Source: Planctomycetota bacterium | GTDB lineage: Bacteria; Planctomycetota; B15-G4 | Reading direction: 5' to 3' | NCBI GenBank assembly: GCA_029259695.1 | Contig: JAJDEQ010000144.1 | Coordinates: forward strand, 1,501-65,500 | DNA length: 64,000 bases | The notes under the pieces: generated by a model | The model's input: the letters and a program-made list of their open reading frames with translations, nothing else | Databases searched by the model: none | Told to the model about the DNA's origin: nothing | Shown here: positions 46,136 to 55,381 of the stretch, piece by piece | Layout: each line of letters opens with the position of its first letter | Position numbering within the stretch: the stretch's first letter is position 1 | Program-made: the position numbers and the translations under genes

Positions 46136-47584
46136 ATGCGCCGCCCGATCCTCATCGTCATCACCTGTTGCGCCCTGGGCGCGGCGCTCGCCTGCAGCCG
46201 CGGCTCCGCCGAGCTCCAGACGCTGGGGCAGCCCAAGTCGATCGTGATGATCCTGATCGACACCCTGCGCTCCGACCACATGAGCCTGTACGGCAGCGAA
46301 CGCACGACGACGCCGTTCCTCGACGGGCTGGCCCGGGAGAGCATCGTCTTCGGCAACGCCTACGCGCCCGCGAGCTGGACCCGTGCTTCGGTGGCGTCGC
46401 TGTTCAGCTCGCGTATCCCCGAGAGTCACGGCTGCGAGGGCCGCGACGGCATGCTCTCGTCCAGCGTGGTCACCCTGGCCGAGGCGCTCGCCGCCGAGGG
46501 CTACGAGGCACGCGGTGTGGTCGCCAACGGCAACGTGCTGCCGCGCCACGGCCTCGATCAGGGGTTCGTGCAGTACGACTTCATCAAGGACTACCCCGAC
46601 TACCCGTACGCCGACGCGCTGGAGATGATCGAGCCGGTCGCCGACGCCCTGGGGCAACTCGGCCCGGGCCCGCACTTCGTCTACCTGCACTACGTCGACC
46701 CGCACGATCCCTACACGCCGCATCACGACGCCGACTTCGACCCGGACTACACTGGGCCCATGGATGGCTCGCGCGAGCAGCTCGAGCCGTTCGGCTTCAA
46801 GCGTCCGCCCGAGGCCGAAGCCCAGCGCACGATCGACCTGTACGACGGCGAGATCCTCTGGTTCGACCGCCAGCTCGAACACGTCTTCTCCGACCTGGAG
46901 GCGCGCGGTCTGCTGGACGAGAGCTGGGTGGTGATCGTGAGCGATCACGGAGAGGGGCTCTGGGATCACGGGGTGATGACTCACGGGGCCGACGTGTTCC
47001 AGGAGCAGCTGCGCGTGCCGCTGATCATCCGGCCGCCGGGCGGGCTGCGCAGCGGACACCTGTGGATCGACGAGCAGATCTCGCTGATCGACGTGGCGCC
47101 GACGCTGCTCGAGTGCGTGGGACTGGCGCAGCCGGAGGACTTCGAGGGGCGCTCCTGGGCGTCCTTCCTCGATGGGCGCGAGGAAGCGCCGGTGCGTCCG
47201 GTGGTGATCGACGAAGAGCTCCAGAACGTGAACCTGGCGGCGATCGTGGACGGTGACCACAAGCTGATCGTGGACTTCAATCGCAACCGGCGTCACCTGT
47301 ACGACCTCGCGACCAATCCACGCGAGGAGCCCGAGGGCGCGATCGACCTGCAGCAGACCCACTCGGAGGTGGGGACGCGGCTGTGGCGCGAACTCGATCG
47401 GGCACTGAGTCGTGCGCGAGAGCGGCGACCGAACGACAATGTCTTCGTCGAGGAGGATCCCGAGCAGCTCGAGATCCTGCGCCGGATGGGCTACATCGAC
47501 GACGAGACGGACGCTGTCCCGCGCGACGACGGGCGAGCGGGCGGGGTCGAACCCGAGGGGGCCGACGACGGCCCGGACGGCTGA
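46136..47584 (+). CDS. Sulfatase-like lipoprotein, Thr-type (tandem paralog)
   Basis: ILIDTLRSDH, ASWTRASVASLFSS, LHYVDPHDPY, SDHGEGLWDH; lipobox ALAC; collinear with 44557-46116. Confidence 0.88.
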   Translation: MRRPILIVITCCALGAALACSRGSAELQTLGQPKSIVMILIDTLRSDHMSLYGSERTTTPFLDGLARESIVFGNAYAPASWTRASVASLFSSRIPESHGCEGRDGMLSSSVVTLAEALAAEGYEARGVVANGNVLPRHGLDQGFVQYDFIKDYPDYPYADALEMIEPVADALGQLGPGPHFVYLHYVDPHDPYTPHHDADFDPDYTGPMDGSREQLEPFGFKRPPEAEAQRTIDLYDGEILWFDRQLEHVFSDLEARGLLDESWVVIVSDHGEGLWDHGVMTHGADVFQEQLRVPLIIRPPGGLRSGHLWIDEQISLIDVAPTLLECVGLAQPEDFEGRSWASFLDGREEAPVRPVVIDEELQNVNLAAIVDGDHKLIVDFNRNRRHLYDLATNPREEPEGAIDLQQTHSEVGTRLWRELDRALSRARERRPNDNVFVEEDPEQLEILRRMGYIDDETDAVPRDDGRAGGVEPEGADDGPDG

Positions 47585-48012: not shown

Positions 48013-48100
48013 CCCGGTGCGGAACTCAGCCCGGTGCGGAACTCAGCCCGGCGCGGAGACTCAGCCCGGCGCGGAGACTCAGCCCGGCGCGGAGACTCAG
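48013..48100. repeat. Five tandem 17/18-bp units at a convergent junction
   Basis: cccggtgcggaactcag x2, then cccggcgcggagactcag x3. The last unit includes the stop codon at 48097-48099. Confidence 0.9.
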
Positions 48101-49122
48101 TCCGCGAGCAGTTCGCGCAGGGCCGGCACCAGCTCCCGTGGGGCGAGCCGGCTGGGAGGCTGCTCGCGCAGGTCGGGGTCCTCGAAGAACGCGTTGCCCA
48201 CCAGGCCGGCGTCCCCGAAACCGAGCAGGGCGACCGGTGCGGCCAAGGCAGTGTGCCACCACACGCCCTCGCGCGGTCCCGGCCCTTCGAGGGCCTCGAG
48301 GGCGGCGGCCACCGGCTCCAGCGGACGTCGCGCCAAGGGCGTGAAGCTGACCGTGTCGAACCACGATTCGTCACGGTAGGCGAATCGGTAGCGGTAGCCG
48401 TCGCTGCCGGGTTGGATCAACAACACGCGGTAGGCCGGGCCGGCGGCGTGGTGCAGGGCGATGGCGGTGAGCGGCTCGGCGCTGGTGACCACCGCCAGAT
48501 CCTCGTCGGGGAAGCGCTCCACCGGCGGTCCGCGCCCGGCATCGATGTTCTCGACCTGCCGGCTGATGAGCTCGTGCCGGGGCTCCCACAGGGCGCGCCA
48601 CGCCCAGGGGTCGTCGAGCACGGCGTCCATGCGCTCCAGCAGCCAGTCGTAGCCCCGGGCCCAGCGGGTCTCCTGGTCGGTTCCGGCGGGGATCTGCGCC
48701 GCGAGCGGGGAGGCCCGGTGCTTCGTGATCGACATCACCGTGAGCTCGACCGCCAGGGCATCGGGACCGTGCCAGGTGGCGAAGTCGCCGGTGGCAGCCG
48801 CGCGCAGCATGGCGTCGGCCCGGGGCAGGGCCCGATCGGGGTGCATCACCGCGAAGGCCGACAGCACCCCGTCGGTGTCGAAGTGGTTCTGCGCGAAGAC
48901 CTCCACCGGCCCCACGAGCCGCCGCTGCTCCAGGGCCGGGCGCCCGGCGAAATCGAGCGCGATGCCCGTGCTGAGGTCGTGTTTCAGCTCAGCGGGGGTC
49001 GTGTTGCCCGGCCAATGGCTCAGGCTGCGGAAGCCGGCCTCGGTTCCGTCCACATAGACCGTGACGGCCGGGTCCGGCTGCCGCGGGAGGAACTCGAAGC
49101 GCGCTGTCGTCTGGATGCCCAC
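48097..49122 (-). CDS. Uncharacterised protein, DUF6687/DHH-like (start uncertain, 49122 or 49176)
   Basis: VYVDG...LSHWPGNTTP...DLSTGI...QNHFDTDGVLS...ATGDF motif pattern. Confidence 0.65.
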   Translation of the reverse strand: MGIQTTARFEFLPRQPDPAVTVYVDGTEAGFRSLSHWPGNTTPAELKHDLSTGIALDFAGRPALEQRRLVGPVEVFAQNHFDTDGVLSAFAVMHPDRALPRADAMLRAAATGDFATWHGPDALAVELTVMSITKHRASPLAAQIPAGTDQETRWARGYDWLLERMDAVLDDPWAWRALWEPRHELISRQVENIDAGRGPPVERFPDEDLAVVTSAEPLTAIALHHAAGPAYRVLLIQPGSDGYRYRFAYRDESWFDTVSFTPLARRPLEPVAAALEALEGPGPREGVWWHTALAAPVALLGFGDAGLVGNAFFEDPDLREQPPSRLAPRELVPALRELLAD

Positions 49123-49349
49123 AAGCAGGCGCCGGATAGCACACCCGCTAGAGAGCGGGGGCGCCATCCGGCGCATGGGTGCGACGATTCGGCCGAATCG
49201 TGCGGCGAGGCCGGAGCCAGCGATCCAGCGAGCGGGCCGACCTCCGGCACCACTCGTCTCGGGGAGTCACCTCGCCCGAGAGGTTCGCAGCTGACCTGCG
49301 CCTGGGTGTCCCGCATCGGCCGCAGTGCGGCGATACGCGACGTCCCCGA

Positions 49350-49532
49350 TTAGAGGTCGTGAGGCCGGACGGTCGAACGCTTGTTGGACTGCGTGCGTTC
49401 GCACGCCTTGTCGAGAGCCTCTCGCACCAGCTGTGACACGGCGTCGGAGAGGTCACCCGAGCACATGAGGCCCTTGGTCTTCACGTAGGCCTTCACCTTG
49501 CTACCGATCACCAGGCTTTCCTTGTCCGCCAT
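49350..49532 (-). CDS. Bacterial histone-fold protein (60 aa)
   Basis: MADKESLVIGSKVKAYVKTKGLMCSGDLSDAVSQLVREALDKACERTQSNKRSTVRPHDL; GGGAG RBS 8 nt before ATG; histone-fold R-x-T-V-x-x-x-D-L end. Confidence 0.88.
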   Translation of the reverse strand: MADKESLVIGSKVKAYVKTKGLMCSGDLSDAVSQLVREALDKACERTQSNKRSTVRPHDL

Positions 49533-49844
49533 CTCGAACACTCCCTTAAACCGTGGTTTCAGCGCTCCATGCGCGCGCCGACACCATACCGCCCGAGGGT
49601 CCCGAACAAGCGCCTTTTGTATGTTTCTCGCGCGGTCTGGTTCCCGGCCGGTCGGGGACACCCTGGCCGGCGGGCCCCGCTTGCGAGCCTGAACGGGCCG
49701 CTGCATGCGTTGCGATGCATATATTTGCCGGCTGCAGGGGCCTCCGACGACCCGTCGCCGCAGGCCGGCCGTTTGATCGCGTTCGGTGTGAGTGGTAAGA
49801 CCGCGCGTTCGACAGACCAGTTCGTTTCAGGCCCCGAGGTCACG

Positions 49845-50384
49845 ATGAAAACGTTCGCCGCCCTACTGCTTACCTTGGTGCTGCTGCCCGCGTGCCACAC
49901 GACGCCCACCAAGAACTACTTCGTGAACCGGGGTGGCGACCTGACCGACATCCTCAGGGGCCACGTGATGTGGGGCAAGGGCATCGCGCTCAAGCTCGAG
50001 GTCACCCGTCTGCTGCACCTCGGTGGCGGCTGGTGGGACGCCCAGGCATGGGGACTGAGCAACCGCGAGGTCGGCGGCTGGCACGAGCAGGTGGGGACCT
50101 GGGGTCTGATCCTCGGTGAGTACCACGAGCGGGACGTCTACGACATCGATCGCGTAAGTGGCAGCTACGGCTGGCGCTTCGCGGAGGAGGGCGGCACGTC
50201 GTTCCATCAGGCCGACCCCGACAACCCGCTCGACCTGCTCACGGTGCGCGCCGACCTGATGCTCTTCGTGGGCATCGATCTCGAGGTTCGCGTGGGCGAG
50301 GTGATCGACTTCGTTGCGGGCATCTTCCAGTTCGACCCGGCCAACGACGACAACGACTACACGTCCGTCATCGACACCCCGTAA
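49845..50384 (+). CDS. Hypothetical lipoprotein (paralog 1)
   Basis: Lipobox LPAC; NRGGDLTDILRGHVMWGKGIALKLEVT. Confidence 0.8.
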   Translation: MKTFAALLLTLVLLPACHTTPTKNYFVNRGGDLTDILRGHVMWGKGIALKLEVTRLLHLGGGWWDAQAWGLSNREVGGWHEQVGTWGLILGEYHERDVYDIDRVSGSYGWRFAEEGGTSFHQADPDNPLDLLTVRADLMLFVGIDLEVRVGEVIDFVAGIFQFDPANDDNDYTSVIDTP

Positions 50385-50397
50385 CGGGCGACGCGAC

Positions 50398-51027
50398 GTG
50401 GCTCGCAGTTCCCCGTCTCGCCGGGCACCGGCACGGCGTCCCGCGCCGGTGCTGTGCGTGCTCGCGTTGGCGGTCGCGAGCGCGTGCTCGGCAGTGGGCG
50501 ACTACGCCGCCGATCGCGGTCACGACCTCGAGGACCTGCTGCGTGGTCACGTGATGGCCGGCCGCGGCATCGGCGCCAAACTCGAGCTGACCCACTTCAT
50601 CCAACTCGGCTACGACAACTACTACGCCGACGCGGCGGGCTGGACCGGGCGTCAGTGGGCGACGTGGCGCGAAGAGATCTTCGGCTGGGGTCTGCTGGTG
50701 GGACAGCACCGGGAGACGCTCGAAGGGATCGACCGCATCAGCGGGAGCTACGGCTGGGCCGGCGGCGACGCCCGGTTCGACGGCGCCGACTCGGGCGGCC
50801 CCCTGGACTGGCTCACGTTGCGCGCGCGCCTGTTCATGTTCTTCGGGGTGGACCTCGAAGTGCGCGTGGGTGAGGTGCTCGACTTCGCTGTGGGCCTGTT
50901 TGGTTTCGACCCCTCCGGTGACGACGGAGCCGTCCACGCGGGTCCGACGAAGAACAGCTACGAGCAGCCGGAGGCGACGCCGCAGGTCGAGGAATCGCTC
51001 CCGGACCCGGGGGACGGGGTCGGCTGA
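50398..51027 (+). CDS. Hypothetical lipoprotein (paralog 2)
   Basis: Lipobox ASAC; DRGHDLEDLLRGHVMAGRGIGAKLELT; clearly similar to 49845-50384. Confidence 0.78.
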   Translation: MARSSPSRRAPARRPAPVLCVLALAVASACSAVGDYAADRGHDLEDLLRGHVMAGRGIGAKLELTHFIQLGYDNYYADAAGWTGRQWATWREEIFGWGLLVGQHRETLEGIDRISGSYGWAGGDARFDGADSGGPLDWLTLRARLFMFFGVDLEVRVGEVLDFAVGLFGFDPSGDDGAVHAGPTKNSYEQPEATPQVEESLPDPGDGVG

Positions 51028-51156: not shown

Positions 51157-53733
51157 CTACTCGTCGCGCCGCAGTTCGGCGTCCAGCAGCCGGTGGGTCT
51201 CGAACAGGCTGCGCCAGTCGCCCTGGAACGCCTCCAGCGGGAGTGGGTCGTTGGGTTGCGCACTGCGCACGGTGACACCGAGGCCCACGACCGTCCCCGG
51301 AACCAGACGCAGTCCTTCGACCTCGACCGCATCCGGGACCGCGTGCACGTGCGGTGCACCCGGGCCCATGCGCTCCGGCAGGAACGCGGTGAGCACGTAG
51401 CGCCCGTTCTGCCGCTCGGCGCCCACGAAGGCGCCGGGCACCGGTCGCCGCCCGACGAACACGCCCTGTGGCGCGTGGTGGGCGCGCAGCGCGATGCGCG
51501 CCGGACCGCACCACACGTCCGAGCCCACGGCGTCCTCGCCGCGGGTCACGCCGTCGGTCTCCCAGCGCCCGAGCCGGCCGCTGCCGTCGAGGTCCAGGAA
51601 CACGTCGCAGGCGCGGTCGGTGCTGACGCGCAGCGTGATGCCCTGCTCGTTCCAGCACGCGCGCAGTTCGATGGCCGTGTCGCGCAGGGGCGGGAGTTCG
51701 TCGCCCTGCGCGCCGGGTGGCGTCGTGCGGCGTGGGGGCAGGGTGGCGATGACGACCGGTTGGTCGCCGTAGGGGATCACGCCGGCGAAGGGGATCAGCG
51801 GCGCCGGGTCGTCGCCGTCCGCCAGGCCGTCGCCGTCGGTGTCGGGATGCCGCGGGTTGCACGAGGCATACAGTCCGGCCGCGGCCTCGGCGAGGTCGTC
51901 CAGTCCGTCGCCGTCGGTGTCGGCCACGGCGGGGTCGCTGCCGAAGCGACGCTCATCGAGGGGCAGCCGTCGGTCGTCGTCGGCCAGGCCGTCGCCGTCG
52001 CTGTCGACCGTCTCGAAGGTCCGGCGACGGGGCCAGCAGATTTGTTCCCAGGCGTCGAAGTCGGCGAAGAGCCGAGCCAGTCCGTCCCAGGCCTCTCCGG
52101 CGTCGAAGGGGCGGCCGCGCTGGCTGCCCAGGCGGCCGGTGAGGACGTCGTTCGCGTAGTGCCCGCTGGGCCAGTCGTCGATGCCCACGGCCGGCGCCAT
52201 GTCGAGTTCGAGCAGGTGGTGCACCTCGTGCGCGAAGCTCCACGCCATGCCCGGGGCGCCGCCCATGGCGCCGGGTGGCGTGGGCACCGGCTCGGGACGC
52301 CCCATGGCGCCGGCCGTGTCGCCCAGCAGGGTGAAGCCCGAGTAGCTCCCCGAGAGGTCACCGGCCACGGCGAAGACCATGCCGAACTGATCGTCGCCGA
52401 CGCCCAGGGCGCGCAGGCGAGCCTCGATCGCACCCATGGTGGGGCCGGCCGTGACCGGGGTCGGGCCGTCGACTGCCAGGTAGGTGGGGTCGAGCAGGAA
52501 GCGCCCGCGCGATTGCAGGTAGATGAAGCGCCGCGCCGCATCGATGCCGTCCACCAGGCGCTCGACCTCGCCGTCGGGGAGACTGTCGGAGAACAGCACC
52601 ACGAGCAGCGGGAAGCGCCCGGGGTCGATCATCCCCGCGGGCTTGCGCGAGTGGGTGCGGACGCGCGACTCGGCGCTGAGTTCGCCGAGCGGGTTGCCGA
52701 ACCCGTCGATGCGCCGATAGCTGTACTGGTACGCCTGGCCGGGTGCGACGGAATCATCGACGTAGACGTTGCTCTCGGTGCGCCCCATGCGTTGGGGTTG
52801 CTTCACGCCGGCGTTGCGACGCAGCACTTCGAACGGCGGCGTGCCCTCGAGCAGCAGCTCGGCCACGCGCCATCCGGGACGGCTGCCCGGCGCCGGGGGG
52901 GAAGCCGCGAGGGGACGCACGAGGCAGTCTCTGCGCGCACCCTCGAGGCTGCCGATGCGCGGTGAGATGGAGATCGGCCCGCCGACCAGCGTCACCGCGC
53001 GTCCACCCTCGGCGAGGGCCAGGGCGCGGGCCGGTTGGACGTTCAGTTGAGCTCGGCCCGTGAGTTCCGGTCGCCCGCCGAGGCTGTCGCGCCCGACGAC
53101 CCTGATCGGGAAGCTGCCGCCCTCCGGGAGCGTCTCGGGCACGTTCTCGAGCGACAGCGCCTCGATCGTCACGAGGCCCCTCACGTCGATCTCGCCCACG
53201 CTCACCGGACCGTCGCCGAGGCGTTCGACTTCGATCTCGAGCCGACGGGTGTTCACGTCGCGCAGGCCGAAGGTGGCCGCGCCGCCGCCGTCCACCACGA
53301 ACTCACCGGCGGCGAAACGGCTCCCATCGGCCTCGACCACGGTCAGCCGCACCTCGCACGCGTCCAGGCCGCCCGGCGTGACGCGCACGCGCCGCACGAC
53401 GAGTCGCTGCGGGAAGTCGATCAGGAAGCGGGCCGGATTCGAGTCGGTGGCGAAGACCGTGACGCTGTTGTCGTCGAACAGGGCCTCCACGCGGCCGGCC
53501 ACCCGGGGCGGAGTGTCGACGGCGATCACCCCGAGTCGTCGCCACCCGGCCAGGTCCACGTCGGCGACCACCGCCTCCTGGGCCCCCAGCGCCGCGGCGA
53601 GGGCAGCCTGCGCGATCGCGACCCGGATCAGGCGGGGGCTCCAGTGGGACCCGCGCCGGCCCGACGCGGACCGCTCGCCGGCGGTGACGGATCGAGGCGA
53701 GGAGCCGATGTGGGTGGGCCGGGAGGCTGCCAT
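51157..53733 (-). CDS. Secreted multidomain protein with HExxH zincin-like motif and Ca-binding DxDGDG repeats (start uncertain)
   Basis: Signal ending ALGA-QE; discoidin-like and FN3-like segments (YVDDSVAPGQAYQY); AHEVHH; DSDGDGL, DTDGDGL x2. Confidence 0.72.
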   Translation of the reverse strand: MAASRPTHIGSSPRSVTAGERSASGRRGSHWSPRLIRVAIAQAALAAALGAQEAVVADVDLAGWRRLGVIAVDTPPRVAGRVEALFDDNSVTVFATDSNPARFLIDFPQRLVVRRVRVTPGGLDACEVRLTVVEADGSRFAAGEFVVDGGGAATFGLRDVNTRRLEIEVERLGDGPVSVGEIDVRGLVTIEALSLENVPETLPEGGSFPIRVVGRDSLGGRPELTGRAQLNVQPARALALAEGGRAVTLVGGPISISPRIGSLEGARRDCLVRPLAASPPAPGSRPGWRVAELLLEGTPPFEVLRRNAGVKQPQRMGRTESNVYVDDSVAPGQAYQYSYRRIDGFGNPLGELSAESRVRTHSRKPAGMIDPGRFPLLVVLFSDSLPDGEVERLVDGIDAARRFIYLQSRGRFLLDPTYLAVDGPTPVTAGPTMGAIEARLRALGVGDDQFGMVFAVAGDLSGSYSGFTLLGDTAGAMGRPEPVPTPPGAMGGAPGMAWSFAHEVHHLLELDMAPAVGIDDWPSGHYANDVLTGRLGSQRGRPFDAGEAWDGLARLFADFDAWEQICWPRRRTFETVDSDGDGLADDDRRLPLDERRFGSDPAVADTDGDGLDDLAEAAAGLYASCNPRHPDTDGDGLADGDDPAPLIPFAGVIPYGDQPVVIATLPPRRTTPPGAQGDELPPLRDTAIELRACWNEQGITLRVSTDRACDVFLDLDGSGRLGRWETDGVTRGEDAVGSDVWCGPARIALRAHHAPQGVFVGRRPVPGAFVGAERQNGRYVLTAFLPERMGPGAPHVHAVPDAVEVEGLRLVPGTVVGLGVTVRSAQPNDPLPLEAFQGDWRSLFETHRLLDAELRRDE

Positions 53734-53851
53734 GACGAGATCATGCGACCCGCTGGTGTCGCGGGACAAGACCGCCGAGCCCGAGACCTTTTGGTCTCCG
53801 CGGCAGGTGCTCTCTGGCGCTGGAGCCGTCACTCGCGTAATTGTGCGCGCC

Positions 53852-55381
53852 ATGCCAAGTCTGCTCATGGGCCAAGCTCCTCTCGGGCTGGGGGAGTTGG
53901 AGCGTCTCTCAAGCCCCCGCCCCCCCCGACTGGGCCTCGCCGACGAGGCCCGAGTGCGGGTCGTCGCGGCTCGGGGCGCCGTCGATCGGGCGATGAAGGC
54001 GGGGCGCGTGTGTTACGGCGTGAACACCGGCTTCGGGCGTCTCGCCCAGACGGTGGTGCCGGCCGGCAAGTTGCGTGCGCTGCAGGTGAACCTGGTACGC
54101 AGCCACGCGGTCGGCGTGGGGGCACCCCTCGACCCGCGCGTCTGCCGACTCGCCTTCGCGTTGCGCATCGCGAACCTCTCCCGTGGCTACTCCGGCGTGC
54201 GCGAGGCCCTGGTCGACCACGCCATGGCCGTCTTCAACGCGGGCATCGTGCCGGTGCTGCCGTCGCAGGGTTCGGTGGGGGCGTCGGGGGATCTGGCGCC
54301 GCTGGCGCACATGGCGCTGGTGCTGATCGGCGAGGGCAAGGCCTGGGTCGGGCGTCGCGCGATGGACGGCGGCGCGGCGCTGGAGCGGCGCGGTCTCTCC
54401 GCGATCCGACTGCAGAGCAAGGAGGGGTTGGCGCTCGTCAACGGCACCCAGGTCTCCACGGCGATCCTGATCGACGCGCTGCTCGCGGCACGGCGACTGG
54501 CGCGTGTGGCGGACATCGCCTGCGCGCTCACCCTGGAAGCACACAAGGGCACCGACAGCGCCTTCGACGAACGGCTGCACCTCGTGCGCGGGCAGCTCGG
54601 CCAGATCCGTGTGGCCGAGACGCTGCGACGCCTGCTCGCGGACAGCGCGATCCTGAGCAGCCATCGCGATTGCGAGCGTGTGCAGGATCCCTACAGCCTG
54701 CGCTGCGTGCCCCAGGTCCACGGTGCATCGCGTGACACGCTGGAGTACGTGACCGGCGTCGTCGAGCGGGAAGCCAACGCCGTGACCGACAACCCGATCG
54801 TGTTCGACAACGGGGACATCGTGTCGGGGGGGAACTTCCACGCCCAGCCCATCGCCCTCGCGGCCGATGCACTCAAGGTGGCCGCGGCCGAGTTCGCGAG
54901 CATCTCCGAACGGCGCATCGAGCTGCTGGTCAATCCCGACGTGTCGGGGCTGCCGGCGTTCCTCGCGCGCGAGAGCGGCGTGCAGAGCGGGCTCATGATC
55001 GCGCAGGTGGCCGCCGCCGCCCTCGTGTCCGAGAACAAGGTGCTCGCGCATCCCGCTTCGGTGGATTCGATCCCGACCTCCGCCGGCAAGGAAGACCACG
55101 TCTCGATGGCGACACACGCCGCGCGGCACGCCCGCACGATCGTCGACAACGCGACGCATGTGCTCGCGCTCGAACTCATGACGGGCTTCCACGGCCTGGC
55201 GTTCGAGAAACGGTTGCGTCCAGGGCGGGGTGTTGCCGCCGCGCGCGCCGTCCTCTCGGAGGTGCTCGCGCCGCTCGTCACCGACAGGGTGTTGGCGGGC
55301 GACGTCGAGGCCGTCGTCGGGGTGATCGCCGACGGCAGCCTGGCGGCTGCGGTCGAGGAGGCCGTCGGCCCGCTGGACTGA
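53852..55381 (+). CDS. hutH: Histidine ammonia-lyase
   Basis: YGVNTGFG, MIO-forming GSVGASGDLAPLAH, GLALVNGT, QDPYSLRCVPQVHG, SGGNFH, KEDHVSM. Confidence 0.95.
   Translation: MPSLLMGQAPLGLGELERLSSPRPPRLGLADEARVRVVAARGAVDRAMKAGRVCYGVNTGFGRLAQTVVPAGKLRALQVNLVRSHAVGVGAPLDPRVCRLAFALRIANLSRGYSGVREALVDHAMAVFNAGIVPVLPSQGSVGASGDLAPLAHMALVLIGEGKAWVGRRAMDGGAALERRGLSAIRLQSKEGLALVNGTQVSTAILIDALLAARRLARVADIACALTLEAHKGTDSAFDERLHLVRGQLGQIRVAETLRRLLADSAILSSHRDCERVQDPYSLRCVPQVHGASRDTLEYVTGVVEREANAVTDNPIVFDNGDIVSGGNFHAQPIALAADALKVAAAEFASISERRIELLVNPDVSGLPAFLARESGVQSGLMIAQVAAAALVSENKVLAHPASVDSIPTSAGKEDHVSMATHAARHARTIVDNATHVLALELMTGFHGLAFEKRLRPGRGVAAARAVLSEVLAPLVTDRVLAGDVEAVVGVIADGSLAAAVEEAVGPLD

Follow-up and report, generated by a model that had tools for sequence, protein, structure and literature searches.

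A 60-residue face-to-face-type histone resembling Leptospira HLp in a Planctomycetota genome

The closest described relatives of the protein reported here are bacterial face-to-face (FtF) histones of Leptospira, namely HLp of Leptospira perolatii (PDB 9QT0, 9QT1 and 9QT2; Hu 2025, PMC12701072) and its orthologue in Leptospira interrogans. These proteins are alpha3-truncated histones, a group with an alpha3 helix of three to four residues and an alpha2 helix four to five residues shorter than in nucleosomal histones, which falls into several categories (Schwab 2024, PMC11390915). Histones of the FtF category form a torus tetramer and conserve R48, N52, R54, T56 and D61, whereas R48 and N52 are absent from "bacterial dimers" such as HBb (Schwab 2024, PMC11390915). 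In HLp, residues R49, S52 and N53 of one dimer form bonds with R55, T61 and F63 of its partner dimer, loop L2 is clamped by R55-D62, and DNA is contacted by A13, S14, K15, K17, K21, T27, G29, T56 and T57 (Hu 2025, PMC12701072). MNase digestion with HLp leaves protected fragments of 35 to 72 bp. In L. interrogans, the orthologue ranks among the most abundant proteins of the cell and is probably essential (Hocher 2023; Schwab 2024, PMC11390915). Further points of comparison are HBb (Bd0055) of Bdellovibrio bacteriovorus (PDB 8CMP, 8FVX and 9EZZ), a strict DNA-bending dimer; the archaeal FtF histones HTkC of Thermococcus kodakarensis (PDB 9F2C) and Haloferax D4GZE0, which have the same subfamily architecture and torus-tetramer signature; and the archaeal nucleosomal histone HMfB (Pfam family PF00808). 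Among bacteria, the Planctomycetota are one of the principal groups with FtF histones, which come mostly from uncultured organisms (Schwab 2024, PMC11390915; Hu 2025, PMC12701072), and histones have been described as showing "notable phylogenetic persistence" in this phylum (Hocher 2023).

We analyzed a 64,000-nt stretch of DNA (the window) from a Planctomycetota assembly of 6.0 Mb in 233 contigs (87% complete, 70% GC). The records nearest to it come from Planctomycetota MAGs, and a number of its relatives are labelled uncultured Phycisphaerales. The gene of interest and the features around it are listed in Table 1. Its product, MADKESLVIGSKVKAYVKTKGLMCSGDLSDAVSQLVREALDKACERTQSNKRSTVRPHDL, has a mass of 6.6 kDa and is modestly basic, with 11 lysines and arginines against 8 aspartates and glutamates. 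The initial annotation had pointed to a basic protein of 60 residues hidden in the 3′ half of a longer reading-frame entry; both the coordinates and the length are correct, and the pI is 9.1.

Table 1. Features of the histone gene and its surroundings, in window coordinates.
Feature	Position	Strand	Basis or remark
Sulfatase-family gene	46136-47584	+	
18-nt tandem repeat CCCGGCGCGGAGACTCAG, 5.2 copies, 96% match	48013-48104		
DUF6687 protein, listed with 359 aa (start possibly further downstream)	48097-49176	-	Downstream neighbour of the histone gene
GC-rich stem-loops 3′ of the histone stop, imperfect here	49249-49341	-	
TAA stop codon of the histone gene	49350-49352	-	
118-aa ORF list entry enclosing the histone gene	49350-49706	-	
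Histone CDS, 60 aa, alpha3-truncated, face-to-face type	49353-49532	-	Sequence, fold model, dN/dS
Predicted histone helices: alpha1, residues 10-19; alpha2, residues 28-49; alpha3, residues 57-59			AlphaFold2 model
Codon of histone C44	49401-49403	-	
Codon of histone C24	49461-49463	-	
Shine-Dalgarno sequence AAGGGAG, 8 nt 5′ of the ATG	49541-49547	-	GGAG-like site kept in orthologues
Candidate -10 hexamer TATGGT, 50 nt 5′ of the ATG	49583-49588	-	Orthologue comparison
First lipoprotein-like paralogue	49845-50384	+	
Second lipoprotein-like paralogue	about 50440-51027	+	
903-aa ORF	51157-53868	-	

Sequence, predicted fold and signature residues all support the identification of this protein as a bacterial histone, which bears out what had been proposed when the gene was first noted. 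Among PDB sequences, phmmer matched it to HLp (9QT0) without gaps over residues 2 to 59 (E = 1.3e-15), to HBb/Bd0055 (8FVX, 8CMP; E = 0.003), and to archaeal HTkC (9F2C; E = 0.06), and a family profile gave E values of 1.9e-26, 2e-10, and 8e-8, respectively. Identity is 50% to HLp over 58 gapless residues, 33% to HBb and 28% to HTkC, which, unlike the present protein, is archaeal and belongs to a sequence cluster separate from that of the bacterial FtF histones. An AlphaFold2 monomer model built on 45 homologues (pLDDT 82) has the alpha1-L1-alpha2-L2-alpha3 order and long central helix of the histone fold superfamily. In a Foldseek search of the PDB with this model, HLp ranked first (TM 0.87/0.92; rmsd 1.0 Å), followed by HBb (TM 0.83), HTkC (TM 0.82), and then eukaryotic and archaeal histone-fold proteins. 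All of the best 50 matches are histone-fold proteins, and the three-helix fold that the first identification called for is what the model shows.

The architecture places the protein among the alpha3-truncated histones: the predicted alpha3 has three residues and alpha2 has 22, within a chain of 60. The other established classes fit poorly. With HMfB the protein shares the histone fold and the RxTxxxxD motif, but its alpha3 is 3 rather than ~10 residues long, its alpha2 is shorter, and it has no four-helix-bundle tetramer interface; a hypernucleosome built from this histone is not expected. No Pfam family was matched above its cut-off, the best being the nucleosomal family CBFD_NFYB_HMF (PF00808) over residues 29 to 60, at 14.1 bits versus a cut-off of 21.4, and an NCBIfam search with the protein also gave no match. 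The pseudodimeric DUF1931 proteins (PF09123) consist of two fused folds in ~140 residues, whereas the present protein is a single fold; PF09123 has no match in it or anywhere in the genome, and among the 45 homologues, 28 give matches to this family that are all below threshold. The named homologues are either "hypothetical protein" entries of Planctomycetota MAGs or JGI entries called "histone H3/H4," and the Pfam and NCBIfam misses explain the "hypothetical" labels on the orthologues. Identifying the protein took the PDB searches by sequence and by fold, of which the sequence search was decisive.

Within the alpha3-truncated group, the protein has a complete FtF signature, R46-x3-N50-x-R52-x-T54-x4-D59, with a spacing identical to that of the FtF HMM. 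These five residues correspond to R48, N52, R54, T56 and D61 of that HMM, and they are invariant in the 45 homologues. Using the offset given by the phmmer alignment (HLp numbering minus 3), the HLp tetramer and clamp residues R49, S52, N53, R55 and D62 are kept as R46, S49, N50, R52 and D59, of which S49 alone varies across the homologues. Six of the nine DNA-contacting residues of HLp are identical (S11, K12, K14, K18, G26 and T54), and three differ (A13 to G10, T27 to C24, and T56 to S53). The closest relatives in sequence are FtF members, and one of the related loci found (L065) is hlp of L. perolatii. The resemblance to HLp extends to equally short alpha2 and alpha3 helices, the same pI of 9.1 and a single histone gene per genome. 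Set against this are a different phylum, a core substitution of L47 by C44, and changes at two of the six residues of the HLp dimer-dimer hydrogen-bond network (T61 to H58 and F63 to L60). The N terminus (MADKES) is not positively charged and is three residues shorter than that of HLp; many bacterial FtF histones have a basic N-terminal tail, which this protein lacks. The genomic neighborhood also differs, with DUF6687, xseB and xseA here and SMC, MAP and DUF350 around the HLp gene. HLp has been characterized experimentally, whereas the present protein is known from its sequence and predicted fold.

On the strength of the conserved tetramer and clamp residues together with the HLp match, we therefore assign the protein to the FtF histones of the Leptospira kind and not to the Bd0055-type dimers. 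The initial annotation had likened it to the minimal histones of Bdellovibrio and Leptospira alike. The motif cited in support, including R52-x-T54...D59, is indeed present, and chance cannot account for the match to HLp; of the two, the protein belongs with the Leptospira type and not with the Bdellovibrio dimer type. The "unusual DNA-binding mode" cited for Bd0055 is likewise not the best model, because the protein is of the HLp type and HBb lacks equivalents of R46 and N50, having S and D at these positions in the phmmer alignment. We nevertheless weighed the reading in which the protein, like HBb/Bd0055, stays a dimer that bends DNA or coats it end-on and forms no wrapping tetramer, and we think it rather unlikely. 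The two proteins have the same alpha3-truncated fold, an SKVK motif on alpha1 and R-x-T...D in L2, the profile match to HBb is significant, and H58 and L60 depart from the HLp interface; far stronger, however, is the likeness to HLp in both E value and identity. Dimer and FtF histones have both been reported in Planctomycetota (Schwab 2024, PMC11390915), and the genome also encodes HU, as in Bdellovibrio and unlike in Leptospira, but R46 and N50, the arginine and asparagine of the dimer-dimer interface that are missing from the dimer class, occur in this protein and in all 45 of its homologues.

We consider it probable that the locus is a genuine, vertically inherited gene for an FtF histone that forms HLp-like wrapping tetramers and compacts the nucleoid beside HU/IHF. 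By analogy with HLp, histone monomers would associate as handshake pairs, and two such dimers would join face-to-face through R46, S49, N50 and R52 into a closed, rigid, torus-shaped tetramer with a continuous basic rim, in which L2 would be held by an R52-D59 clamp. The conserved rim residues S11, K12, K14, K18, G26 and T54 would then touch the DNA backbone irrespective of sequence, and each tetramer would wrap ~60 bp of DNA, giving irregular nucleosome-like protection and compaction of the nucleoid. The histone would act alongside HU/IHF, not in their place. We infer from its characterized relatives that this protein forms tetramers, wraps DNA, is highly abundant and acts on chromatin globally.

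The histone gene belongs to the core genome of its order and is vertically inherited. With the family profile, it was found in all 16 genomes of its own family, in all 12 genomes of the sister family (all fragmented assemblies of 20 to ~1050 contigs), in 36 of 41 relatives (18 of the 19 high-quality ones), and in 135 of 301 sampled Planctomycetota (92 of 190 high-quality genomes). At least 473 species genomes, Leptospira perolatii included, encode the two motifs of the histone. Orthologues with 88 to 90% identity occur in isolates OFTM221 and OFTM347. The statement that histones are rare in bacteria, made when the gene was first noted, thus needs qualification within Planctomycetota, where 135 of 301 makes them common. 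In its own genome, the gene is single copy, and searches of the 87%-complete assembly with the protein, the family profile, PF09123 and PF00808 revealed no second histone-fold gene. Three genomes of the same order (G022, G025 and G028; family f5) carry, beside the orthologue (E ~1e-27), a second and more divergent alpha3-histone paralogue (E ~1e-10 to 1e-11).

We also asked what other nucleoid proteins accompany the histone. HU/IHF proteins (PF00216) are encoded in 300 of the same 301 Planctomycetota genomes, and two such genes are present in the genome studied here, whereas Leptospira has no HU/IHF. The histone has therefore been added to HU, and replacement of HU by the histone is ruled out. 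With both HU/IHF genes retained, the main nucleoid protein of this genome may be one other than the histone.

The gene order around the histone is conserved across the family. In the genome studied here and in its family, two divergent genes for small lipoprotein-like paralogues are followed by the histone gene, by a DUF6687 gene on the same strand, and by xseB and xseA on the opposite strand, so that xseB, sometimes a sulfatase gene, and xseA converge on the histone and DUF6687 genes. This conserved synteny with xseB and xseA, together with presence in every genome of the family, agrees with the earlier view that the gene sits among core genes and not in an island. The two lipoprotein-like paralogues lie in tandem, are 47% identical (E = 1e-46), are transcribed divergently from the histone gene, and have no Pfam match; in related genomes, one or two unannotated genes of 169 to 211 aa take the place of this pair. 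The 18-nt tandem repeat lies in the gap between the convergent xseB and DUF6687 genes and overlaps the last DUF6687 codons. The sulfatase-family gene directly precedes xseB in this genome and separates xseB from xseA in a related locus (L009), while xseB and xseA are adjacent in two others (L006 and L007); the sulfatase gene therefore appears to have entered the exonuclease VII gene pair in a lineage-specific manner. The 903-aa ORF beyond the lipoprotein-like genes has no Pfam match at E ≤ 0.01 and contains acidic repeats of the DTDGDGLxD type; at the same relative position, related loci have genes of 810 to 847 aa with no recorded Pfam family.

That the gene is monocistronic, as the initial annotation had it, is possible but needs qualification: in every genome of the family a DUF6687 gene comes next on the same strand, although at least 177 nt and GC-rich hairpins lie between the two genes here. 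Scans of the histone locus for a sigma-70 consensus promoter and for a canonical intrinsic terminator gave no matches, and an Rfam scan of positions 49100 to 49900 returned chance-level matches only. In 13 of 17 orthologous loci, however, a TAT(T/C)CT-like hexamer lies 45 to 156 nt before the ATG, preceded by an A-rich patch and, ~19 to 21 nt upstream, a conserved GC; from this comparison, the TATGGT of the present locus is plausibly a promoter element. Most orthologues have a near-perfect GC hairpin of 12 to 18 bp just past the histone stop, and weaker stem-loops occur in the genome studied here. Such a 3′ hairpin could be a terminator lacking a T tract or a 3′ stabilizer.

Codon usage is compatible with high expression of the histone. 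With 17 ribosomal-protein and EF-G genes from one contig (C14) as the reference, the histone scores 0.005 versus a ribosomal mean of 0.003 and exceeds 98% of long ORFs; 18% of random 60-codon windows match this score, and the genome as a whole has almost no difference in codon usage between ribosomal-protein and average genes. The histone gene ends in TAA, a stop codon that terminates 55 of 2463 long background ORFs (2%). Codon score and stop codon agree with high expression and are not evidence for it.

The neighboring DUF6687 gene was considered as a possible functional partner. Its assignment to this Pfam family of unknown function is clear (E = 4.9e-59). A PDB sequence search with the DUF6687 protein gave no match; Foldseek matches of its AlphaFold2 model (pLDDT 91) are weak (E 0.005 to 0.3, TM 0.2 to 0.3) and are enriched for DHH/DHHA1 phosphoesterases, among them PggH, exopolyphosphatase (PPX1), RecJ2 and NrnA. 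A motif, NNH-x-D-T-D-G (H98-x-D100-x-D102-G103), is invariant or nearly so, and we take it to resemble the N-terminal metal-binding motifs of DHH enzymes. Of 301 Planctomycetota genomes, 49 encode DUF6687; the 14 control genomes all lack it. The histone and DUF6687 genes are same-strand neighbors in all eight family genomes compared, separated by 33 to 178 nt in relatives and by at least 177 nt, with the GC-rich hairpins between them, in the genome studied here. In the sister family (f2) and in two further families (f9 and f47), the two genes are either separated by over 100 kb or found on separate contigs, and in family f58 DUF6687 is present and the histone absent. With adjacency lost elsewhere and DUF6687 found without the histone, the arrangement is therefore family-level synteny and gives no evidence for a partnership, and DUF6687 was rejected as a functional partner.

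These observations bear on the reading in which the protein has a histone fold yet is no global chromatin protein, acting instead as a low-abundance or condition-specific DNA-binding factor, possibly with DUF6687. We regard this as improbable. The disappearance of the DUF6687 adjacency outside the family, and the absence of the histone from f58, count against the constant presence of that gene next to the histone within the family. The codon score, reached by 18% of random windows, and the retention of HU/IHF throughout nearly the whole phylum sample leave room for a minor role, but the characterized close relatives in Leptospira (the L. interrogans protein and HLp) are abundant, essential or nucleoid-reorganizing. 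Not all prokaryotic histone-fold proteins need organize genomes, as Schwab 2024 (PMC11390915) cautions, and HTkC is expressed far below HTkA (Schwab 2024, PMC11390915); the present gene, for its part, combines strong conservation and a strong ribosome-binding site with a long upstream region containing the conserved promoter-like motif and with a 3′ hairpin.

Beyond a nucleoid-compacting FtF histone acting beside HU/IHF, a more far-reaching version of the same reading may be drawn from the cysteines of the protein. Both C24 and C44 are shared across the close Planctomycetota clade. In loop L1, C24 stands where HLp has the DNA-contacting T27, and C44 takes the place of L47 in the dimer core; more distant homologues have T, S or A at the first position and A, L, I or M at the second. 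It is conceivable, though we consider it quite improbable, that the FtF histone is dominant despite HU/IHF, forms ~60-bp tetramer particles, and binds DNA in a redox-sensitive manner through C24. If this were true, a dominant redox-sensitive FtF histone would represent regulated bacterial chromatin with no described counterpart.

The gene model itself is well determined. A search of 5.8 billion proteins returned 72 histone homologues at 53 to 88% identity, 42 of them exactly 60 aa long, and dN/dS against 12 orthologues is 0.08 to 0.26, with synonymous sites close to saturation. The 60-codon short form is a real gene under purifying selection. Most orthologues have a GGAG-type site 6 to 9 nt 5′ of the same ATG, so the good ribosome-binding site noted at the outset stands. 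The 118-aa ORF is an artefact, because the 58 codons upstream of the histone start show no conservation among the 12 orthologues, 7 of which have in-frame stops there, and it is ruled out as the real product. High-GC genomes do yield many long spurious ORFs, and Pfam and NCBIfam gave no above-threshold match, but the homologues and their lengths, a dN/dS well below 1, the unconserved and stop-interrupted extension, the conserved start and Shine-Dalgarno site, and the confidently predicted fold leave a chance frame, or the 118-aa frame as the true product, practically no likelihood.

FtF histones are already known from Planctomycetota (Hocher 2023; Schwab 2024, PMC11390915; Hu 2025, PMC12701072), and the present locus is a well-supported but ordinary addition to them. 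As their existence and distribution in the phylum have been published, this locus alone brings nothing conceptually new; the first identification was correct and is here sharpened to the FtF/HLp type, a result that will not surprise a specialist. The locus does expose an annotation gap, in that Pfam and NCBIfam miss the histone and its GenBank orthologues are called "hypothetical protein." To our knowledge, no Planctomycetota histone has been studied experimentally, and this one is therefore a sensible choice for recombinant study. As a further well-documented case, it fits the recent picture of histones beyond archaea and eukaryotes, in a lineage that carries its histone as a core, single-copy and strongly constrained gene coexisting with HU.
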